Of a DNA stretch of 39,454 nt, positions 6,046 through 27,600 are shown piece after piece. The stretch lies in IMG/VR virus record IMGVR_UViG_3300042879_001567, positions 1 to 39,454 of that record; one strand, 5' to 3'. How positions within the stretch are numbered: position 1 is the first letter of the stretch; the number at the start of each line of letters is the position of its first letter. A program made the translations under genes and the position numbers. The notes under the pieces were generated by a model that was not told the DNA's origin, did no database searches, and saw only the letters and a list, made by a program, of their open reading frames with translations. This DNA is from a virus. Taxonomy: Duplodnaviria; Caudoviricetes.

Positions 6046-6099
6046 GTCAATCTCCTTGGTGATGTTTCAGATCGGCGGCACCTCGCCGCCTTGGCGTGG

Positions 6100-6128
6100 A
6101 TCGTATACGCCCTCGTAGGCGCGGTCAA
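6100..6128 (-). promoter_or_regulatory. Sigma70-type promoter P3
   Basis: TTGACC (6128-6123), 17-nt spacer, TACGAT (6105-6100). Confidence 0.65.
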
Positions 6129-6571
6129 GGGTTCTGCCGGCACCATTCGACCATGAGCGCGATGATGCGCCGCTGCGTGACGTGCAGGCCCATCCGCTCC
6201 TGCGCGGCGGCGATCTCGTGCGGGCTAGCCGTGGCGAGGATGCGCTCGGCGTCTGCCTCCCATTCGGCGAGTTCGTGGGCCGGCGGCGGCTGGCAGTCGA
6301 GGTGTTCGCGGCGCGTGCGCTGCACCTCGTTGATGCCCTCGCTGCTGGCGTTGTTGGCCGAAGTCACCTTGCAGTACGCCTTGTGGATGCTCGAGAGGTC
6401 CGGCACCTTGTCTCGCTCGAGGCGGTGCTGCTCGATGCAGTCGCGCAGCTTGTCCTGGTGCAGCTGTCCCCAGCGCCGGTTCAGGAGGTTGGCCTCGGCC
6501 TGGGACGGCTTCCATCCCGGCCAGAGTTCGACCATGAGTTTCTTGTTGTCAATCCATGAGATGGCGTCCAT
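6125..6571 (-). CDS. Hypothetical protein downstream of the replication initiator (possible helicase-loader partner)
   Basis: 148-aa ORF with RBS GAGGA. The function is a positional guess only. Confidence 0.55.
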   Translation of the reverse strand: MDAISWIDNKKLMVELWPGWKPSQAEANLLNRRWGQLHQDKLRDCIEQHRLERDKVPDLSSIHKAYCKVTSANNASSEGINEVQRTRREHLDCQPPPAHELAEWEADAERILATASPHEIAAAQERMGLHVTQRRIIALMVEWCRQNP

Positions 6572-6582
6572 GTTCGTCCTCG

Positions 6583-7098
6583 TCAGAATGGCGTGTAGGT
6601 TGGGTTGGATCGGTTCTCTTCAAGTTCCTTCAGCCTTCGCCGCCGCCCCCCCTTCCGTGAAGGGGGGGCTATGGGGGGATCTATATGTGAATGTGGATGT
6701 GGATACGGACGGTCACCGCTACGGTCACCGTCACGGTCACCGTCACGCTGACCGTGCTTTCGCTTCGCATTTGTGGCCTCAGCGGCCATCTGGCGCGCCT
6801 TACGCACCTTCTCGGTCTTTGCGCGCTCACGTTCCATGCGCGGATGCACCCATGCTTGCACACGGTCACCGTCACGGTCACCGTGCGGAACGAGTCGCGC
6901 ACGGATCTGCGACCACGCCTCTGGTGTCATCCCTCCCGTGATTCTCTGTAACTCGTTGTTGTCACTCGGGATGCATCCGTTTATCCACGCATAGCACAGC
7001 AGTCGCGTGTAGGCGCCGACCACCTCAGGCGCCATCGACATGGTGCTGGCGATGAAATCCGGCACGTACAGGGGAAACCATGGCAGGTCCGTTGCCAT
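6583..7098 (-). CDS. DUF1376/YdaU-like replication initiator (replisome organiser)
   Basis: MATDLPWFPLYVPDFIASTMSM...GAYTRLLCYAW...GCIPSD...L.RI; HPRMERER coil. Contains iterons. ATG 7098 with GGAG 6 nt upstream. Confidence 0.8.
   Translation of the reverse strand: MATDLPWFPLYVPDFIASTMSMAPEVVGAYTRLLCYAWINGCIPSDNNELQRITGGMTPEAWSQIRARLVPHGDRDGDRVQAWVHPRMERERAKTEKVRKARQMAAEATNAKRKHGQRDGDRDGDRSGDRPYPHPHSHIDPPIAPPSRKGGRRRRLKELEENRSNPTYTPF
6709..6885. repeat. Six 12-bp near-palindromic iterons (ACGGTCACCGTC), putative replication origin
   Basis: Four tandem units at 6709-6756 and two at 6862-6885, inside the initiator gene as in lambda O. Confidence 0.7.
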
Positions 7099-7112
7099 CG
7101 TGAACTCCAACA

Positions 7113-7192
7113 GACCGGGGCGGGACAGGGAGCGGCTGCAAGCAACCTATCCCGCCCTCGGTCATTGAGATGTCGAGCAGTTGCAGCCGCTC
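7113..7192 (-). promoter_or_regulatory. Structured 5' leader of the initiator mRNA (interleaved 12-bp and 17-bp helices)
   Basis: 7192-7181 pairs perfectly with 7141-7130. 7163-7146 pairs with 7129-7113 (one bulge, one U-G). Confidence 0.65.
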
Positions 7193-7209
7193 TGCGCGCA
7201 GTATATCAT
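7181..7209 (+). promoter_or_regulatory. Sigma70-type promoter for a small RNA, overlapping the divergent promoter
   Basis: TTGCAG (7181-7186), 17-nt spacer, TATCAT (7204-7209). Confidence 0.55.
7200..7208 (-). promoter_or_regulatory. Extended -10 promoter for the initiator operon
   Basis: TGaTATACT. The predicted start (~7192) coincides with the first base of the leader helix. Confidence 0.6.
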
Positions 7210-7215
7210 CTCCTC

Positions 7216-7354
7216 GTCGGTTGTGTCGCCGGGATGCCCCAGGCTTGTTGCCTGTTCGGCGCCGCGACTGACAACGGGAAGCCACGGACGGCTCCCGAAC
7301 TTTGCCCCCGGAACGCGCCCCGCGTTGATCTCACGATCCGCGGGGCGTTTCTTT
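7216..7354 (+). ncRNA. Putative ~140-nt structured small RNA
   Basis: Promoter, three hairpins (7216-7272, 7275-7297, 7316-7347) and a U-tail. G-U pairs form only on the plus strand. No credible ORF. Confidence 0.55.
7316..7354 (+). terminator. Intrinsic terminator
   Basis: CGCCCCGCG/CGCGGGGCG stem followed by TTTCTTT. Confidence 0.7.
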
Positions 7355-7490
7355 CGTCGTTGTCCGACCCGAAACGACCTTGTCCGACCTTGTCCGCCCC
7401 GGCTCGTATGTGAGCGAATCCGCCACACTTGTGACGATGTGTAGTACTTCCGCTCCAACGACCGACATTCCGTAGCAGTACCCTCCCCGT

Positions 7491-7979
7491 ATGCGCGTCA
7501 CGCTCGTGGATACCGAGGTACGGATATGCAAGTGGTTGGCCGCGCAGCGGTTTGCGGTTGCCCGCCGTTCCGGCGTGAGCGACAGGCAGATGGGGCCGCA
7601 GTCGAGCGAGCAGACCGACCTTGACGGGATCGCCGGCGAGTTCGCGTTCTGCAAGGCCATGAACCTCTGGCCCGACATGACCATCGGCGCACGAAGCGGG
7701 GGTCACGATGCCGCGTTCGGAGCAACGTCCATCGACGTCAAGACCACGCGGCACGCAAGCGGGCATCTGCTCGCTACCACCAAGAAATCGGACACCGCCA
7801 GCGACGTGTATGTCCTCGTCATCGGGACGATCCCGGAGTTCCGCGTGGTGGGCTGGGCATCAGCGGCGATGCTGTTCCACGAGGACAACCTCAGCGACTT
7901 CGGGCATGGCCTTGGATACGCTCTGCCGCAATACAGGCTGCGGCCGCTCCATGAGCTGCGGGACAGCGCACGAACTTAG
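7491..7979 (+). CDS. Putative PD-(D/E)xK nuclease-fold phage protein
   Basis: GIAGEFA...GHD...IDVKTT motif pattern. Confidence 0.55.
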   Translation: MRVTLVDTEVRICKWLAAQRFAVARRSGVSDRQMGPQSSEQTDLDGIAGEFAFCKAMNLWPDMTIGARSGGHDAAFGATSIDVKTTRHASGHLLATTKKSDTASDVYVLVIGTIPEFRVVGWASAAMLFHEDNLSDFGHGLGYALPQYRLRPLHELRDSART

Positions 7980-8127
7980 TCGTGCCTGCCCCTGGCGGTA
8001 GGTTGCTCTTTACCCCAATGGCTGCGCCGGCGGGCGGCGTACCTCGCGGCCTTCAGGCCCGCCCCATGCAGGGAATCGGCTCCGACCCCTCAGCCCCGCA
8101 TCTCCGCGTCCGTAGGATACTGCCACG

Positions 8128-8697
8128 ATGCCGCGCCACGCCAATCTTCCGCACCACCTCTACATCCATGTCAACAACGCCGCGCTCGGGCCGAAGATGC
8201 CGGAAGGCACGACGCGAGCCATCTGGCATGCCGTCTACTGCCGGCCTGGGCAGATCGTGATGGCGCACGTCCTGCTCGAGACAGGCGCGGAGTGGTGCGG
8301 CGTTCCCCTGCACATGATCGCGTCAGGCCCGGATGCGTTCCGCGTCAAGCAGCTCAGCGGCCCGGAGGCTCCCGGCGACCTCCAGCCCTGGGGCGCGATG
8401 GGCGACCACGTCGAGGCCGTCCACCTCGAGTACCTCGAGGGAATGATGGCGATGGGAAGCGGCAAGGGACCGGGCTTCTGCGGCAACCACACGGGGATCG
8501 TCATCGACTGGTCGGACGGCTTCTCGCGCTACCCGCAGGAACACAAGCCGCTCAACCTCATCGAGCGCAGCGACGGGAAGTACCTGCTGTATCCAAACAA
8601 CTACATCCGCCTGCTGGACAAGCACTTCACGAACTGGAAGAAGGACGATCAGCTCCAGCACTACCGCCGCGGCGACCGCGTGTTCTGGGAGATGTAA
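8128..8697 (+). CDS. Hypothetical phage protein, 189 aa
   Basis: Clean ORF with genome-typical codon usage (LQPWGAMG, QEHKPLN, LYPNN). Confidence 0.7.
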   Translation: MPRHANLPHHLYIHVNNAALGPKMPEGTTRAIWHAVYCRPGQIVMAHVLLETGAEWCGVPLHMIASGPDAFRVKQLSGPEAPGDLQPWGAMGDHVEAVHLEYLEGMMAMGSGKGPGFCGNHTGIVIDWSDGFSRYPQEHKPLNLIERSDGKYLLYPNNYIRLLDKHFTNWKKDDQLQHYRRGDRVFWEM

Positions 8698-8717
8698 GTT
8701 TATCTTCCACCTTTTTC

Positions 8718-8981
8718 TTACGGCGTTCGCCTGTAGCCCAAGCGCCACAGCAGGCGCGAGATGTCGCGGGCGGTCGCGTCCACGGCGGCCTCGTCAAGCT
8801 CCGGGCGGGCGCAGTGCAGCGCCTCGTGGACGATGGTGTCGAGCGTGTCCTGCTCGCCTTGCCATGTACCGATGCGGATGATCCGGCCCTCGGCGTGGCC
8901 GGGATCGACCATGCTGCCGTAGTCCTTCAGGTTCCCCGAGAACCGCAGCGTCCAATACTTGCCGCCGATGCGGACGCGCAC
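8718..8981 (-). CDS. Small HExxH zinc-metallopeptidase-like protein
   Basis: DTIVHEALH followed by an E in ELDEAAV. Confidence 0.65.
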   Translation of the reverse strand: MRVRIGGKYWTLRFSGNLKDYGSMVDPGHAEGRIIRIGTWQGEQDTLDTIVHEALHCARPELDEAAVDATARDISRLLWRLGYRRTP

Positions 8982-8985
8982 GGCA

Positions 8986-9117
8986 TCACTTGAACCCGCG
9001 GCGCATGGCCGCGTAGGAGGCGGCGCTCACGGTGGACCTGCTCTTCGACCGACTGGTTCCGGCCTTGCGCCGTGCGTTGATGTTCGCGTACAGGCCGCGT
9101 GCCTTCTTCTTCGCCAT
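8986..9117 (-). CDS. Small basic protein, 43 aa (MAKKKARGLYANINARRKAG...), not in the ORF track
   Basis: ATG 9117 after GAGGA, stop TGA at 8986-8988. Fills the gap between two genes. Confidence 0.65.
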   Translation of the reverse strand: MAKKKARGLYANINARRKAGTSRSKSRSTVSAASYAAMRRGFK

Positions 9118-9122
9118 GTTGG

Positions 9123-9392
9123 TCATCCTCTCGAGGTCTTGCCGCTGCACTTCCACTTCGCACGCGAAAGCCGCAGCGGGCTGTTCGGGTTTCGCGCCGC
9201 CGCAGGGTGCGACTTCATCTGCGCGAAGCTGCGGGCGCAGTAAGCGTCACCCTTCGCGGTCCCGGGCTTGATGCGGTCGCCGCCGCCCTTGGCCTTGCCT
9301 GCCTGACCGTAGGACACGGTGTTCGACCGCCCGGTCTTGGGGTTGCGGACCACCTTCACGAATCGCTTGCCCTTTGCTGGTGTCGGCATCAT
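9123..9392 (-). CDS. Basic phage protein, 89 aa (YCARS...NPNS.LR.SR.KWKC; possibly DUF6321-like)
   Basis: RBS GAAGGA. The motif pattern is one I recall from aquatic phage proteins. Confidence 0.6.
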   Translation of the reverse strand: MMPTPAKGKRFVKVVRNPKTGRSNTVSYGQAGKAKGGGDRIKPGTAKGDAYCARSFAQMKSHPAAARNPNSPLRLSRAKWKCSGKTSRG

Positions 9393-9413
9393 GTGTCCTT
9401 CCTAGACGGCCAG

Positions 9414-10325
9414 TTACTGCGCCTCGCGCACCTCGTATCGTAGTTCCCGCGTGCGGTTGCCGTTGAGCCGCAGGTTCTCCATGTAGAACCGCAGCCACAG
9501 CGCACCCTTCGGCTTGGGCGGCATGCCCTTCTCGACGGCCCACCCGTTCTGCTCGCTGAACTCGTCCTTGTACCCGGGCGAACGGATGTGCATGACCCTG
9601 TCCAGGTACGGCCTCCCGTGCGGGGAAAGCCGTGCGCGCTGGATCGGCATGATCCATTCGTCGTGCGTGTGGCCCGTCCAGATGATGTCGGCATCCGGCA
9701 GGTAGACGGCCATTCGCGAGGTCTGGATGGTTCCCCTCGTGACAGGACCGCCGCCGCCGTAGCCGTGGTGCATGTACATCACGACGCTGCCTGCCGCGAG
9801 CTGCCGGCGCTCCTTGCAACGGACCACGAACCGCACCCAGTTGGCGTATTTGCCCGCATACGCTTGGCAGTCTGCGGGCCTGCGGTGGCGCAGCGCCTCC
9901 ACGAGCCGCTCGTTCATGTCCGACTCGTGGCGCTTGCGAATGGAATTTTCATGATTGCCGGGCGCGAACAAGAGCGCCATGTCGGCATGTGGCGCCACGT
10001 AATCGGCGGTCGTGCTGATGACGGAATCGAGATAGCGACCCTGCTGATGCTCCGGCCGGCATGCCGAGGTGTCGGACCTCAAATCGTATTTTCCCTGCAT
10101 GCAGCAGAGGAAATCCCCATTACTTAGCCACCGCCCTCCGCGCTCGCGGCATTGCCGCATGTGTCGGTCGAACATCGACCTATCCGCGTGCGCGTTGTCG
10201 ATGTGAGCGTCGGACACCAGCAGGAAGTACTGCTCCCACCCGGCGGTTGGCACGTTTGAATCACCGTCCTCGGTCATCTCGACCGTGAACGATCCTGGCT
10301 GGTGTTGCGTGATTGCGACAGCCAC
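9414..10325 (-). CDS. Calcineurin-like metallophosphoesterase
   Basis: Motifs SDAH, NGD, GNHE, HHG and GHTH. Probable GTG start at 10325. Confidence 0.85.
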   Translation of the reverse strand: MAVAITQHQPGSFTVEMTEDGDSNVPTAGWEQYFLLVSDAHIDNAHADRSMFDRHMRQCRERGGRWLSNGDFLCCMQGKYDLRSDTSACRPEHQQGRYLDSVISTTADYVAPHADMALLFAPGNHENSIRKRHESDMNERLVEALRHRRPADCQAYAGKYANWVRFVVRCKERRQLAAGSVVMYMHHGYGGGGPVTRGTIQTSRMAVYLPDADIIWTGHTHDEWIMPIQRARLSPHGRPYLDRVMHIRSPGYKDEFSEQNGWAVEKGMPPKPKGALWLRFYMENLRLNGNRTRELRYEVREAQ

Positions 10326-10401
10326 TCGGCCGCAGCGTAGCCCCGCTCCTGCACTTAGAAGAATGTGACAGAAATGTTGCAGATTTTCTAACGATCCTGC
10401 A

Positions 10402-10431
10402 TTGACAGGACGATATACGCATCTGTACCCT
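10402..10431 (+). promoter_or_regulatory. Sigma70-type early promoter P1
   Basis: TTGACA, 18-nt spacer, TACCCT, with an AT-rich UP-like tract upstream. Confidence 0.65.
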
Positions 10432-10487
10432 GCTCCCGCCGACGCAGGCGCGTTGCCGAGATCGGCGAAGCACTCGAGGAGATCACC

Positions 10488-10745
10488 ATGAAAGTCCGCG
10501 CAACACTGGGCCAGATCATGCTGCACCACCCGCAGGTCGCGAAGCGATACGAGAACGGCGACGTCATGCTCGCCGCCGCCCGCGAACTCGGGGATTCGGT
10601 TTCGTTCCGCCTCATCACCGCGACCCGCCGGCTCGCTGAGATCGACCGCGACAACGAGGCCGAGTTCGACGCTGCCGCGCTCGACCTGATGGACGCCGAG
10701 GCCGAGTTCCTCCGCACGCACGAGAACACGGAGGTGGCGCTGTGA
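10488..10745 (+). CDS. Hypothetical early protein, 85 aa
   Basis: RBS GAGGAG. First gene after P1. Confidence 0.7.
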   Translation: MKVRATLGQIMLHHPQVAKRYENGDVMLAAARELGDSVSFRLITATRRLAEIDRDNEAEFDAAALDLMDAEAEFLRTHENTEVAL

Positions 10746-10987
10746 CCCGCTCCGACACCGACACCGGGCTGCGGAGGCTGTACTACCTGCTGTCCGTCCT
10801 TCACGCTGGCGGCAGCCCCAAGCGCGGCGACCTCGCCCGAAAGTGGAACGTCACCCCCCGCGCCGTCAGCCACCTCATCGCCGCAGCGCACGACCGCTAC
10901 GCGGTCATCCTCGCCGACACCGGCGACGGGTACGAGATCATCAGCCCAGGCGTGTTCGACCTCGAGCGGGTCAAGGAGGTCGCATGA
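10742..10987 (+). CDS. Winged-helix HTH protein
   Basis: RLYYLLSVL...RGDLARKWNVTPRAVSHLI...GYEI (HTH_11-like). Confidence 0.65.
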   Translation: MTRSDTDTGLRRLYYLLSVLHAGGSPKRGDLARKWNVTPRAVSHLIAAAHDRYAVILADTGDGYEIISPGVFDLERVKEVA

Positions 10988-11289
10988 ACCTCTTCGATGC
11001 CAACGAGGCCGAGCGCAGGAAGCGGATCGGGATGATGCTGGCGGCTGACGGGAAGGTCCACCTGCTTGACAGCGCACGCGGGTTCGCGGCGGCCATCGCC
11101 ACCGTCAAGGGCGAGGTGACCAGCGATGACGTTGCGGCCATCATGGCCGTGAACGGCCTGGACTACGCTGAACTCGGCAACGCCGCCGGCAGCGTGTTCG
11201 ACGGCCGATTCGCATGGACTGGCCGAGTCGTGCCGAGCGCCCGTCCTTCCTCGCACGGGCGGCTGATCCGCGTCTGGAGCCTCGCATGA
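10984..11289 (+). CDS. Hypothetical phage protein, 101 aa
   Basis: ATGA overlap, RBS AAGGAGG; GNAAGSVF...SHGRLIRVW. Confidence 0.7.
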   Translation: MNLFDANEAERRKRIGMMLAADGKVHLLDSARGFAAAIATVKGEVTSDDVAAIMAVNGLDYAELGNAAGSVFDGRFAWTGRVVPSARPSSHGRLIRVWSLA

Positions 11290-11630
11290 ATGTCAACGTG
11301 AACGTCGAGGTGGCCGTGATGAGCGACCTGTTCAAGGATGAGGCCATTGCCGAGTACGTGTCGAGCAACGACATCATCGCGGTGTTCGAGGCGCGGTGGG
11401 AGCGCGACCACTACGAGCAGCACCATTACCACGGCTCACAGCAGCACTGGTACTGGGAGCTGAAGGACACCGTGCTGCTCGAGCTGCGGCTCAACGGCAC
11501 GGTCCTGAAGCTCGACGCCGAGGTGCCGAACGACTTCCCCATGTCGGAGGTGCTTGCCGCGATGATGCGGCGCGAGGTCCGCAACGAGATCGAACTCGTC
11601 GGCCCGAAGGCACGGAGGATCACGCAATGA
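11286..11630 (+). CDS. Hypothetical protein, 114 aa
   Basis: ATGA overlap with the upstream gene. Confidence 0.65.
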   Translation: MNVNVNVEVAVMSDLFKDEAIAEYVSSNDIIAVFEARWERDHYEQHHYHGSQQHWYWELKDTVLLELRLNGTVLKLDAEVPNDFPMSEVLAAMMRREVRNEIELVGPKARRITQ

Positions 11631-11674
11631 GATACCTGTCCGTGTGCAGCGGCACGAACGAAGGAGGCGCGTGA
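11627..11674 (+). pseudogene. 15-codon remnant of a C5 DNA cytosine methyltransferase
   Basis: MRYLSVCSG matches the motif I N-terminus of phage Dcm-like enzymes. The RBS (GGAGG) is intact, but the ORF ends after 15 aa. Confidence 0.55.
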
Positions 11675-11850
11675 TGGGCAACCTGGCAGTCACGCTCTCG
11701 AGCAGGCATACCGTGGTGCTGGTCGAGCCGAGCGGCCGGCGCATCGCGGTCATCATGCCAAACGACAAGACCACCGGGAAGGTGCAGCTCGTGCTGCGCG
11801 TCGATCCCGAGATCAGGGTGATACGAGAGAAGAAGGAGCCGACGAAATGA
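11674..11850 (+). CDS. CsrA/RsmA-like small RNA-binding protein, 58 aa
   Basis: Size and beta-strand pattern. GKVQLVLRVDPEIRVIRE resembles CsrA GxQVRIGIxAPxxVxIxREE. Confidence 0.5.
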   Translation: MGNLAVTLSSRHTVVLVEPSGRRIAVIMPNDKTTGKVQLVLRVDPEIRVIREKKEPTK

Positions 11851-12041
11851 GCGAAACGCAGCGCATCCGCCTGAGCGCGGAAACGGCCGAAACCATCCGC
11901 AAGCGAGTGGCTGCCGGTGAGCGCCAGTGCGACGTTGCACGCGACCACGGCATCAGCGCCGCGACCGTGTGCCGCATCGTCAACGGCTCGAGGCACGCGC
12001 AGCCGCAACAAACGCAAGAACAGGACGCGAGCAATGGATGA
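11847..12041 (+). CDS. HTH DNA-binding protein
   Basis: IRKRVAAGERQCDVARDHGISAATVCRIVNG. Confidence 0.75.
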   Translation: MSETQRIRLSAETAETIRKRVAAGERQCDVARDHGISAATVCRIVNGSRHAQPQQTQEQDASNG

Positions 12042-12282
12042 CGATGACATCGTCCCTCGCCTGCGTCTTTGGGCCGAGGGCGTTCAGAACCAAAAGGCCG
12101 TCGTGCTGGCGGTTGCGATCACCGAAGCCGCCGACGAGATCGAACGGCTGCGTAAGGAGCGCGACGAGGCGAGGCGTATGTATTGCGGACGGGTATCCCG
12201 CGATGTGCCGCTTGATGCGTTTGATATTGCGAAGAACCACGGTTGGGATTGCTTTCCACAGGAGGACGAGCCATGCCAGTAG
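12034..12282 (+). CDS. Small coiled-coil protein (EIERLR..ERDEARR...GWDCF family)
   Basis: Paralogous to 12448..12738. Confidence 0.65.
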   Translation: MDDDDIVPRLRLWAEGVQNQKAVVLAVAITEAADEIERLRKERDEARRMYCGRVSRDVPLDAFDIAKNHGWDCFPQEDEPCQ

Positions 12283-12458
12283 GCGGCAGATACAAGAACA
12301 CGAAATACGGACACAACGCATCGGGCGACGATGTGTTCTTCATCCTCATCCCGATCTTCGCGGTCGTCCTGCTCATTGCAATGATCGGGGAGACTCGGAG
12401 AGCCAAGAGCAGCACGAACCACAACACCACACAGAAGGAGACTCGCCATGTTCAGTAA
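12273..12458 (+). CDS. Small single-TM membrane protein, 61 aa
   Basis: RBS GGAGGA; hydrophobic stretch VFFILIPIFAVVLLIAMIG. Confidence 0.6.
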   Translation: MPVGGRYKNTKYGHNASGDDVFFILIPIFAVVLLIAMIGETRRAKSSTNHNTTQKETRHVQ

Positions 12459-12738
12459 CACCTGCGCCATGACACTCGCACAGAAGTCCGACCGCATCCT
12501 CGCCCAGACGCGAGGATTGAGCGGAGCGACACCGAACGCCACGCAACTCATCGAAGAACTGCGGTGGGCGTTGGAGGAGAACAGGAAGGAAGTCGAACGC
12601 CTCCGCGCTGAGCGCGACGAGGCGAGGCGGGAGGTGTGCAGCATGAACGAAACCGGATTTCGTATGAACGAGAGTGACAAGAAGCGCGAAGCCAAGCGGC
12701 GCGGATGGGACTGCTTCAAGGAGAACACCGATGACTGA
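12448..12738 (+). CDS. Small coiled-coil protein (EVERLR..ERDEARR...GWDCF family)
   Basis: RBS AAGGAG; paralogous to 12034..12282. Confidence 0.65.
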   Translation: MFSNTCAMTLAQKSDRILAQTRGLSGATPNATQLIEELRWALEENRKEVERLRAERDEARREVCSMNETGFRMNESDKKREAKRRGWDCFKENTDD

Positions 12739-12925
12739 CCCAGGCGACGAACACCATGACATCGTTGAACGCCTTGCCATCCGTTGGCAAGGCATGGGCG
12801 ACATGGCGAACGCCGAGCGCGCCGAGGCACGCGCCGAGATCCTGCGCCTGCGCTCCGAGCTTGCGCTCTGCAGGCGCGTGCTGCCCGACCGCATATCCAA
12901 ATTGCTTTACGAGGGCGAGGGCTGA
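12731..12925 (+). CDS. Hypothetical protein, 64 aa (DIVERL...EILRLR)
   Basis: RBS AAGGAG; overlaps the upstream gene end. Confidence 0.6.
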   Translation: MTDPGDEHHDIVERLAIRWQGMGDMANAERAEARAEILRLRSELALCRRVLPDRISKLLYEGEG

Positions 12926-12928
12926 ACC

Positions 12929-13123
12929 ATGCCAGGACGAGGGGAATGGGACGAGGATGTCGTTGACCGAACCAAGGCAAGCGGCACCACCGACCCGCTC
13001 ACCCTTGAACTCATGCAGGAAGTCGTGTACCTGCGCGGCGAACTTGCTAAATTGACACGCACCGTCAACCAGGCGAAGCAACGTGAACTCCTGCAGCTCA
13101 ACCACAAACTCCGCACCGATTGA
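12929..13123 (+). CDS. Hypothetical protein, 64 aa
   Basis: Operon position; DVVDR...EVVYLR pattern related to its neighbours. Confidence 0.55.
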   Translation: MPGRGEWDEDVVDRTKASGTTDPLTLELMQEVVYLRGELAKLTRTVNQAKQRELLQLNHKLRTD

Positions 13124-13526
13124 GTTCACGATCCCCGGCGCGGCCGCACCGCAGGGGAGCAAGCGGGCCATCCGACTGCGGACAGGCAGGACGGTGCTGG
13201 TCGAGTCCTCGGCCAAGGTGAAGCCGTTCCGTGCCGTGGCCGCGCTCTGCGCGACCGAGGCTTGGCACCAGCCGCCGACCGCCGGCACGGTCGCCCTTGA
13301 GGTCGCGTTCCGCTTCGTGCGCCCGAAGAGCCACCACAAGGCCAACGGCGACCTCCGTGCCGGCGCACCCCTGACGCCCGGGAAGCCCGACATCGACAAG
13401 CTGCTGCGCGCCCTGCTCGACGCCCTGACCGGGGTGGTCTACGTGGATGACAGCCAGGTCGCCTGCATCTGGGCCACCAAGGAATACGGGCCGCGCTCGG
13501 AAACGACCGTTTCCGTGGTCACCTGA
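13083..13526 (+). CDS. rusA: RusA-family Holliday junction resolvase
   Basis: PQGSKR, KPDIDKLLRALLDALTG, VYVDDSQV. Confidence 0.9.
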   Translation: MNSCSSTTNSAPIEFTIPGAAAPQGSKRAIRLRTGRTVLVESSAKVKPFRAVAALCATEAWHQPPTAGTVALEVAFRFVRPKSHHKANGDLRAGAPLTPGKPDIDKLLRALLDALTGVVYVDDSQVACIWATKEYGPRSETTVSVVT

Positions 13527-13554
13527 CCGGGAAAGAAATCTTTCCTACGGGGAC

Positions 13555-13583
13555 TTGACACACAGGATACCGCTGCGTATCTT
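13555..13583 (+). promoter_or_regulatory. Sigma70-type early promoter P2
   Basis: TTGACA, 17-nt spacer, TATCTT, with an A/T tract upstream. Confidence 0.75.
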
Positions 13584-13638
13584 GTGTCTGTCGATGTACG
13601 GCGCGTTGCCCGAACCCGACGCAACAGAGGAGATTGAG

Positions 13639-24600: not shown

Positions 24601-27600
24601 AGCGCGTCGGTTCGCTCCTCGATGGCGTCCTTCATCGGCTTTGCGCCGACGAGGTCACGGATCATGGTGTCAGCACTCGGGTATCCGAACGTCTCGGCGA
24701 CCATGCGCGGGTCCAGCCCTTCCGTCGCGAGCATGCCGCCCCTGCCGGTGCCGAGCTTCCGCCAGTCAGGCTGGAGGATCGCAGGCACGGCCATCCCGGT
24801 CGCACGGATTGCCGCCACCGATTCCTCGGTCGGGATGCCCTGGTAGACGGTTTCGACGCCGGCGATGGACAGCCTGTGGGGACCGTCAACCTTGATTTCC
24901 TCGCCGGCATCGTCGCGGAACATGCCCGTCCGCAGGTAACCCTGCACCCGGTACACGAGGCGTCCGCGCACCTCGGCCTCGGCCTCCTTGCGGACCTCGC
25001 GCCGGCGGGACTCCATGTCCTTCGTCTCCTCGCGCTCGGCGCGGGCGCGTGCGCGGCGCAGCCAGCCGACCTGCGCGAGGCTCGCCTTCGTCAGGTCAGC
25101 GATGGCCTGCTCGTCGGCTTCCTCGTTCATCTGGACGTAGGCCGCCCACGTGGCGTCGTCCATGTTCGCCTCTTCCTGCGTCTGGAAGTGCGGAGCCATC
25201 GACTGCACGGCCTGGTAACGGCGGATCTGCTCCTCGCTCGCGAGCATGCGGTCCATCACCTGCCGAACCTCGTTGGTCAGGATCGGCAGGTCGCGCCCGA
25301 ACTCGCGGCGGTAGATGGTGGCAGGCGTCTCCGTGATTGTCTTGTACAGACGGGTCAGGTACGAGCGGAACCTGCTGAACAGGCCGCGCAGCTCCGCGCT
25401 CGGAGCCTTGCCATCCCATGCGTAAATCTCGAAGCTGTACGCGAACTGCTCGTGGTACTTGCGCTGCTGCTCGACGGTCATGCCGAGCCACGATTCAAGC
25501 CGCGCCTCCGGCGTTGCGCCGGCAATGCCGAACCACTTCAGCAGCTCGTTGATGTCGGCCTTGACCTGCGCCGGCGCGTCGGGCTGCTGCGCGATCTGCG
25601 TGTAGATCGTGAGGAAGGCGTGCGCCGCCTCGTGGATCAGAGTTGACAGGTCGCCGCCCTTGGCGATTGTCGCGGTCAGGCTTCTCGGGTCGAAGAAGCC
25701 TCGGGCTGGGCCGACTGCGGCTTGGGAGTACCTGCCGAGCTGCTCGTTGACAAGTCGGGACGCTTCGCCCCGAATAGCATCAAGACGCCGCCTCTCGTCA
25801 GCTCGCGCAGGTCTTCCTTGGTCAGCGGCTGCACCTTCGACGGCTGGTTCTGGTTCTCGATCATTGAGGCTCCATGCTTCGCCGTGCTTGATGCTGACGA
25901 TCCGAGGATCGGTGCCAACGGCTTGGTCAATTCTACGCGCCAGTTCCTCGCTGTCAACGCCCGCTTCCAACCCGATAATCATTCTCGAGCCAACGGTGGA
26001 GTGGCCGACCTTCGTGACCTGGTAGAGCTTGTTCTCGTATAGGTCGGCGATTTCTGCCGGCGTGGTTCCGGGCTGCAAGTCGATCACGACCAGGCCGGCA
26101 CGCTCGGACCCGACAAACTCCTCCTGGGAGATCGAGAAGATCGACTCCTGCGACAATACGTACCGGAGTGCCTTCGACACCTGCCGCACCATCGTCGTGG
26201 ACGGAAGCGTCAGCGCGAACGACATGTTCGTCGCTCCGTCCCATCCACCGACCTGTTCCTCGAACGAGCCAGAGATACCGAACTCCGCAAGCACTCGCGG
26301 AATGATCTTGCTTGCGACCTCGCGGCTGATCTGAAAACGAGCCTCCGGCGTCAACGCATTCCACGCTGCCGTCAGTTCGGTGTTTCGCGGATCTGGCGCG
26401 ATCTCGAACATCAGGCGCGTCGCTTCCTGCATCTGCCGGCGAATCATCGGCTCCATCGCGTCCATCAGTTCACGCGACCGACCCGAGTAGGTGGAACCGA
26501 CCGGGAGGTCCGAAGGCTGCGCCACCCACTCCGGCGTCTTGATCCCCTTCGACAGCGTGAACACCTGGTCGCGTGCCGCTTCCAGCGTGATCTCGCCCTT
26601 CATGTACTTGGCCCACACTTCGGCGATGATCGGCTTCAGGGTCTTCTTCTCGGCCGCGACGAACAGTCCACGGATTGCCTCCCAAGTGATCGACTGCTCC
26701 TCGCGTGCGATGATGCCTCGCTTCGCGGCAGCACGCTTGTACGCCTCGAAGATGATCGGATACCCGCCGTGCAGGCCGAGCTTCGCGTCGGAAACGCCGG
26801 CTCCAAGACCCCAGCCGACGACCTCGTCGCTCGCAGACAGCGGCGAAAGGAACGCCGCGGCAATGGCGTGCGTGTCGATGGTCGCGGCGTTGACGTTCTG
26901 CGGGTCGAAGATGTTGTTGTAGAAGTTCCTGACCTTGTGCGCCTTGCCGATCTGGTGGTGGACGTTCTCGGCGCGGCCGTCCTCGAAGACGCTGATGGCC
27001 TTCTGGATGGTCGAGTATGACCCCCAGCGCATCGACATCGGCCCTGATGCGCCCATGCTCGGGCCTGCCATGCCTCCTTCCGGCGTGATGATCGCGAAGG
27101 AACGGTCGTTGTGTTCCTCGTCGAACATGCGGACGAACATCGCAGCCAGCTCGAGATCCCTTGTCGCGAGGACGGTGTTCAGCGTCCCGTTCCGCATCGC
27201 ATTCATTCGGTCGGACGATGACAGCGCATCGAGGTAGGCAAGGCGCTTCCTCTTGCCGTCGAGCATCTTCTCGAGGCGAACGGTTCGCTTCTGCCATTCG
27301 ACGACATCGTCCTCGTACTGCTTGACGCGCTCCGCGAACTGCGCTTCCGTCTCGGCCTTCTGCTGCCCTGGCATCCTCGGAGACTTCGGCCGGTCGCGAC
27401 GGTGGGCAGCCATTTCGGCACGGAGCATCGTCGTCGATTCACCGGCTTCCTGCTTCTCCTCGAGTTCGGTTTCGTATTCCTTGAGCTGCGCCTGCCATGT
27501 CGCGAGATCCGCCTCGTAGGCGGCCTTCATTTCCTCGCGCTTGGCGTCGAACTCCTTCTTCCGCGCCTTGAATGCGGCGTCTGATTCTGCGACAAGCGGC

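Follow-up and report, generated by a model that had tools for sequence, protein, structure and literature searches.

The early region of the phage studied here raises the question of why a short hairpin recurs at the very start of its early transcripts, and of what might act on it. The window, that is, the whole stretch of 39,454 nucleotides that was analyzed (IMG/VR record IMGVR_UViG_3300042879_001567), holds a phage genome that is complete (39.3 kb, terminal repeat of 127 nt) and has podovirus-type structural genes, and the closest listed capsid proteins, those of Limnohabitans phage DC33 and Manatee Spring virus, are 80% identical. The early-region promoters are P1 (10402) and P2 (13555), which face rightward, P3 (6128), which faces leftward, and the promoter of a small RNA (sRNA; 7181). 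A preliminary description, made from the sequence alone, had noted a GGC-N5-GCC pentaloop hairpin in the P1, P2, and P3 leaders and at the apex of the sRNA, and had read it as a nut/boxB-like protein-binding site for which the sRNA might be a decoy. We conclude that the P1 and P2 leaders carry an uncatalogued cis-acting RNA hairpin that unrelated phages have in common, and that the neighboring sRNA is genuine. The hairpin, GC-[RYGKU]-GC, begins at the +1 position of both transcripts, is conserved and strand-oriented, and is probably bound by a protein, so that this part of the earlier proposal stands, but its assignment to nut/boxB antitermination is unsupported.

Conservation of the P1 and P2 leader hairpin

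The elements of the two leaders are as follows.

10402..10431, plus strand: sigma70-type promoter P1, TTGACA-18-TACCCT, kept in relatives
10437..10467, plus strand: P1 leader hairpin, core GGC-GCGTT-GCC at 10447-10457, conserved
10477..10490, plus strand: Shine-Dalgarno sequence (SD) AGGAGAT-N4-ATG of the first P1 gene
13555..13583, plus strand: promoter P2, TTGACA-17-TATCTT, with a GATAC-N6-GTATC repeat at 13566-13581
13590..13620, plus strand: P2 leader hairpin, core GGC-GCGTT-GCC at 13600-13610, conserved

The four 11-mers on which the preliminary description drew were all found in place, and the P1, P2, and sRNA transcripts start with G(C/T)CG, 7 nt past a -10 box. The AGGAGAT-N4-ATG string, also listed there as a shared feature, does precede the first genes of P1, P2, and P3, but it is found as well before recT, which has no such hairpin, and it is therefore best regarded as an ordinary strong SD. 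A scan for the background rate of GGC-N5-GCC gave 31 matches in comparison to a mean of 28.6, a number reached by 37 of 100 shuffles, which places the motif in that form at chance level. The 9-nt core was likewise not enriched in the window (6 found, 9.6 expected); the 11-mer GGCRYGTTGCC was enriched (2 found, 0.37 expected), and both copies lie downstream of P1 and P2. Judged from the window sequence by itself, the two leader hairpins are weak (z -1.8 for P1 and -0.9 for P2) and differ from the minimum-energy fold of the whole leader, so the case for them rests on relatives.

The relatives comprised 65 loci fetched by protein homology, plus whole or near-whole genomes, from which 52 distinct P1/P2 leaders were parsed. 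Thirteen entries were left unparsed: five show the loop in other listings, four have an insertion beside the anchor gene (their leaders are of the ATGAC type), two are truncated, and two lie outside the family. All 52 parsed leaders matched the loop or a variant of it under a permissive pattern that was drawn up after the data had been seen. RYGKT loops were present in 39/52 leaders (21/25 for P1 and 18/27 for P2), counts that include the correction of four P1 picks printed as GGGTT that are ACGTT by eye. The remaining loops were GCGT in nine P2 leaders of one clade and ATGAC or AGGAT in four leaders of the outgroup. The third pair, as printed, was G-C in 33, C-G in 6, A-T in 5, T-A in 2, T-G in 1, and unpaired in 5 (four of these being the mis-picks); because it varies, the constant part is GC-loop-GC rather than GGC-N5-GCC. 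The outer stems change sequence yet keep their pairing while the 9-nt core stays, across lineages with different capsid types. Pairing of the flanks was stronger at family loci (mean z -2.16, n = 38, with 28/38 below -1.5) than at other loci (mean z -0.88, n = 37, 10/37) in a comparison where one family row was misclassed, several of the "other" rows are true carriers, and rows are related. For an orientation control, the sense pattern was found in at least 128 stretches and the reversed loop in 56; with rows near locus ends dropped, a -10 box, an SD-ATG, and a stem accompanied 30 of the 61 distinct sense matches listed and 0 of the 42 reversed ones. The gap between the hairpin and the ATG had a median of 19 nt (range 13-24, n = 53) and leaves the SD free, indicating that the hairpin never hides the SD and acts per gene.

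The P2 leaders of L021, L023, L078, L170, and L191 have a second hairpin, GCGCGG-CGNN-CCGCGC, between the main hairpin and the SD. Searches of Rfam 15 returned only chance-level covariance-model matches, and word-based searches of an open literature library found no description of the loop. The Rhodopirellula-1 motif was considered and rejected, because that element is longer and carries RCGUU at the 3' end.

Spread beyond the podovirus family

The hairpin also occurs in G009, a 63.8-kb phage with an HK97 capsid that is unrelated to the podovirus family. Eleven copies lie on one strand of this genome inside a 7-kb stretch, each then followed by an SD-ATG, and one further copy lies elsewhere on the opposite strand; copies of the control were absent. 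Two of the 11 were scored as following a promoter; others come directly after a stop codon, and some may follow weaker promoters, and the copies are alike beyond the core. In G684 there are 7 copies, and in several related contigs 2-4 each. The few accessory genes that the podovirus and HK97-type lineages share suggest a common host group, and no gene is common to all carriers. For DC33 and Manatee virus (80% identical capsid protein; one of them grown on Limnohabitans), no promoter-linked copy was found. Loose scans of viral sequences for the hairpin returned mostly background; an AT-rich match, L541, is a single copy in a T4-like, cyanophage-looking fragment and was treated as chance.

The P3 leader and the sRNA

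The other two sites of the proposed four-site motif are set out below.

6074..6090, minus strand: P3 leader hairpin with a GAGGT loop, related but optional
6100..6128, minus strand: promoter P3 of an accessory cassette
7181..7209, plus strand: sRNA promoter, TTGCAG-17-TATCAT (relatives have TTGACA versions)
7216..7354, plus strand: conserved sRNA with a 5' stem with variable apex (7242-7252), CCCCCGGA linker (7304-7313), and terminator (7317-7354)
7281..7292, plus strand: GCC-ACGGAC-GGC hairpin in the sRNA, which fits the Csr/Rsm ANGGAX hexaloop on a C-G pair

Whereas the P1 and P2 hairpins are conserved in relatives, the P3 hairpin and the sRNA apex proved not to be conserved members of the set. 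P3 belongs to an accessory cassette whose gene has a related hairpin in the window, in L110 (GCGGT), and in L075 (GCGT); the P3 leaders of L002, L004, L017-L019, and L060 have no related hairpin. The hairpins that had been called terminator-like, located downstream of the first P2 gene and the first P3 gene, have no U-tract (their tails are TTTC and CTCTGT) and were not called by a terminator scan.

The sRNA itself has a fold z of -3.7, with 0/200 shuffles as good, and is conserved; in 8/17 consensus pairs, both partners change. The apex sequence is TTGTT, TTGT, ATGT, TGGA, GCGT, GAGT, ACGC, or ATCGTT(T), and the close relative L047 has lost the apex by deletion. No apex seen has an RYGKU pentaloop, and the idea that the apex acts as a decoy is weakly supported, although the several apices of GC-NNGT-GC form make weak mimicry of the leader loop possible. 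The invariant part of the sRNA is CCCCCGGA, joined in many members by GCC-ACGGAC-GGC on a variable outer stem. This hairpin has an ANGGAX hexaloop on a C-G pair, the high-affinity Csr/Rsm consensus according to the excerpted text of PMC4005645. Judged by sequence, the invariant ACGGAC hexaloop is a better decoy candidate than the apex, but for CsrA-type proteins; ACGGAC matches in L052, L054, and L058 fall in coding region and were left uncounted. The sRNA linker showed no conserved pairing with the leader loop. The one sequencing run examined for expression is probably of DNA and contained fragments of relatives only. The reverse complement of the motif occurs in an sRNA terminator loop at L075:6695-6770.

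Further RNAs were seen nearby and in other loci. Another conserved RNA, non-coding and some 150 nt long, lies at window positions 8107-7960 on the minus strand, with a promoter -10 near 8119-8114. It is multi-stemmed, with 17/29 pairs changing on both sides over 14 relatives, has an invariant GAA-GGCC-GCGA-GG-UAC GNRA arm and a 3' hairpin, has no Rfam match, and is possibly more striking than the leader hairpin. At L002:3378-3480, L003:3886-3990, and L010:2383-2520, the sRNA is followed by an inserted, optional small RNA that has its own promoter and the hairpins GTCGGGAAACCGAC and CCTTCCGCAAGG. Butyricicoccus genomes (L259-L362) contain an element (AAAAAAGGGCGCGTTGCCGGTAGACGG...) that is present in multiple copies, linked to promoters, and unrelated to the leader hairpin; it may be a small RNA family.

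Candidate binding proteins encoded by the phage

Two products of the P1 side of the early region were considered, together with a DNA repeat.

10416..10427: inverted repeat TAC-N6-GTA within the P1 spacer, sharing bases with the -10 box and predicted to be a DNA operator
10742..10987, plus strand: the P1 operon's second gene, encoding a winged helix-turn-helix (HTH) protein that is a candidate to bind the DNA repeat
11674..11850, plus strand: divergent CsrA-like gene

The 11674-11850 product is CsrA-like by profile, although the window protein itself has no PF02599 match and lies below the Pfam cut-off; weak PF02599 matches (best E 5e-6) were obtained for six of 10 homologs in the alignment. 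With hhalign it gave 89.8% to a Pfam-passing phage CsrA, and it has weak sequence matches to solved CsrA. A monomer model shows five strands (pLDDT 88.6), and fold searches with it found no CsrA match (Foldseek none at E<=0.001; best Z 4.7). The gene is present in the window, in 11 of 13 other podovirus genomes, and in 3 of 4 other carriers, G680 being covered over 20 of 28.5 kb; it was not found in G001, which is complete, or in G004. At loci without it, the P2 loop was the shortened GCGT in 24/26 and the ACGGAC hairpin was present in 0/17 that span the sRNA, whereas loci with it had the hexaloop in 11/12 that also hold the sRNA core; these counts include many duplicate loci, and trees reduce the loss to one or two events. 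The P1 loop is intact in the CsrA-less loci.

The 10742-10987 product is an HTH_11/DeoR-like winged HTH (Atlas score 0.95), present in 11/14 podovirus genomes and 0/4 other carriers. TAC-N6-GTA occurs in 35/51 family promoter strings, a few of them mis-anchored, in comparison to 4/209 for background, and is absent in G009. G697 and G007 lack both the gene and the repeat, and G697 keeps its GCGTT loops; the joint absence suggests that the HTH protein is likely a DNA repressor and the repeat, on sequence grounds, likely its DNA operator. No phage protein was found in all carriers, the CsrA-like protein being missing in G001 and G004 and the winged HTH in G697 and the siphoviruses.

The repeat lies in early promoter spacers at 10416-10427, 13566-13581, and 6117-6106 and tracks the winged-HTH gene. 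A promoter-like site was also seen at window position 25957 (minus strand), inside the gene of a 2996-aa giant virion protein; G001, G004, and G006 also have promoter-like sites, the sequence downstream being similar, and the TAC repeat is present in two of these.

What might act on the hairpin

We tentatively favor, as a possibility held well short of confidence, that a host protein docks on the hairpin and thereby protects or tunes the early mRNAs. This protein would bind the RYGKU loop on the early message and, once bound, would shield the 5' end and sustain translation gene by gene. The lack of any phage protein common to the carriers was counted for this reading, as was the lack of a promoter-linked copy in DC33 and Manatee virus. 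Protection is proposed by analogy to flhDC mRNA, which, in the account excerpted from PMC7652899, is guarded from RNase E by CsrA bound near its 5' end. We suspect, as a guess, a host CsrA-family paralogue, because the loop is closed by a C-G pair and starts with R-N-G and because the outgroup has an AGGAU loop. CsrA is present in 42/101 Planctomycetota and 21/61 Gemmatimonadota-side genomes. Matches to the 10984 protein were found in 2/401 of the former group and 2/251 of the latter, one of them a 2.2-kb family fragment in a Gemmatimonas bin. Several results weigh against a host-protein site. No host regulon with the hairpin was found, as a genome-wide scan gave scattered taxa, mostly without the stem, and five Planctomycetota genomes gave 8 matches versus 3 for controls. 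The leaders compared are related, and their counts are not independent. Folding energy does not favor the sense strand (26/46; G-U pairs 55 versus 44); energy alone cannot separate RNA from single-stranded DNA, and we take the element to be RNA from its position after +1 and its 30-40-nt extent. The Csr fold reads GGA via the backbone, and the authors of PMC4005645, in the excerpted text, call these bases irreplaceable, which argues against an ordinary CsrA binding RYGUU. Finally, the Aca1 hairpin is equal in position and spacing, yet Aca2 represses via such hairpins (PMC13551039, in part).

Repression by a protein of the phage itself is a weaker possibility, and we consider it rather unlikely: the CsrA-like protein or the P1-operon winged HTH would bind the loop and shut down early translation as Aca2 does, with the HTH also binding TAC-N6-GTA. 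The layout resembles that of acr-aca operons as far as these are described in the excerpts of PMC13551039 (promoter repeat, hairpin after the start site about 20 nt before the ATG, several operons, between-gene copies, and the HTH gene second), of the early proteins just the CsrA-like one was detected in both lineages, and the shortened P2 loop and missing ACGGAC hairpin of the CsrA-less loci point the same way. Against this, those loci reflect only one or two losses, a perfect P1 loop is kept in CsrA-less G001 and G004 and the P2 loop in L129, G697 keeps GCGTT loops with neither HTH nor repeat, and the siphovirus CsrA is near-canonical and located outside the early region. A related proposal, an orthogonal Csr-type circuit in which a divergent CsrA, from the phage or a host paralogue, would read the GGA-less RYGKU loops while the ACGGAC loop of the phage sRNA titrates CsrA, is in our estimate unlikely.

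Explanations that need no dedicated repressor fare no better. HK022 put RNA brings about protein-independent antitermination via RNA polymerase, and a put-like hairpin that binds the host enzyme directly and makes it resist pausing or Rho-dependent termination would suit an element that starts at +1, needs no phage protein, and in several P2 leaders is followed by a second, CGNN-loop hairpin; we nevertheless hold it improbable, given that most leaders have a single short hairpin, that no intrinsic terminator was called within the P1 or P2 operons, and that the per-gene copies of G009 are not expected for a persistent modification of polymerase. The lambda nut site combines the boxA motif YGCTCTT with a boxB that has a GNRA-like pentaloop. 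A lambda-type site of this kind, used by an N-like antiterminator of the phage and mimicked by the sRNA apex as a decoy, was the earlier model; it accounts for a pentaloop hairpin shortly after early promoters and could draw on the GC-NNGU-GC apices of several sRNAs and the GCGT shared by the sRNA and P2 in the L009 clade. We consider it the least probable of the explanations, as the leaders contain no boxA-like YGCTCTT (9 matches in the window), no U-tract terminator was called that could be read through, recT directly follows P2 in most relatives, no protein is common to all carriers, the sRNA apex is variable or deleted, and the unrelated phage has a hairpin per gene; the per-gene layout and the lack of called intrinsic terminators and of boxA argue together against it. 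Almost as improbable is a double-stranded DNA operator just downstream of the promoters: the core is near-palindromic and the energy test does not separate the strands, but the orientation is fixed, the complementary flanks change in sequence, the third pair covaries, and there are copies without promoters. It is also quite improbable that the hairpin is a ligand-free 5' stabilizer whose loop was kept by descent and by recombination of promoter-leader cassettes of PeSL type. Pairing of the 5' end from +1, the similarity of the G009 copies beyond the core, and the occurrence of the P3 gene with and without the hairpin are consistent with it; turnover of the outer stems around a constant 9-nt core in lineages with different capsid types is not, and PeSL stem-loops, as excerpted from PMC2839356, overlap the promoter and are terminators.

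Two phage lineages that are unrelated use one nine-base RNA core, both at +1 and upstream of single early genes. If the favored host factor does bind, the hairpin would mark a host machine co-opted by phages for early expression, through an element that is short, portable, and easy to test. If instead a CsrA-like protein binds, Csr specificity can change, and an orthogonal circuit would mean that a Csr protein of changed specificity, thought impossible from structural work, is common to unrelated phages of one host group.

Other features of the early region

The replication-initiator gene has tandem GGTCACCGTCAC-type repeats resembling origin iterons (window 6707-6762 and 6860-6903). Its leader (window 7195-7100, minus strand) has a strong fold (z -5.6) in which two inverted repeats interleave (A-B-A'-B'), an arrangement that might allow a switch or pseudoknot, and similar segments occur in relatives.

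Comparison with known systems

Like HK022 put RNA and lambda nut/boxB, the leader hairpin would be a cis-acting hairpin at the start of early transcripts; here the loop is different (RYGKT rather than GNRA-like), boxA, an N-like protein, and intrinsic terminators were not found, and there is one copy per gene. The PeSL cassettes of T4-like phages share repeated promoter/stem-loop/SD units in variable early regions, but their stems, as excerpted from PMC2839356 and PMC4122927, overlap the promoter and terminate, whereas here the hairpin follows +1, is the first part to be transcribed, and keeps its loop fixed. Csr/Rsm sites and sponge sRNAs (PMC4005645 and PMC7652899, in part) have in common with this system the C-G closing pair, the purine in first position, an sRNA (here with one exact ANGGAX hexaloop), and a CsrA-like gene, phage csrA alleles being known with predicted function only in the excerpt of PMC7366521. 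They differ in that the leader loops lack GGA, with A(N)GGAX fitting 1/52 leaders (AGGAT), that the sponge sRNAs of those excerpts have many hexaloops where this one has a single one, and that the CsrA-like protein is below the Pfam cut-off. By analogy, the leader hairpin appears to work most like the Aca1/Aca2 5'-UTR motifs of PMC13551039, though without an HTH protein in every carrier. In the excerpted account these share with it a hairpin directly after the start site and about 20 nt before the ATG, a promoter inverted repeat (whose GTA half here overlaps the -10 box), several operons, between-gene copies, and an HTH gene in second place; what sets the present element apart is that no Aca or Acr family was identified, that its HTH is winged and missing in some carriers, and that the loop is the conserved part, common to an unrelated phage lineage.

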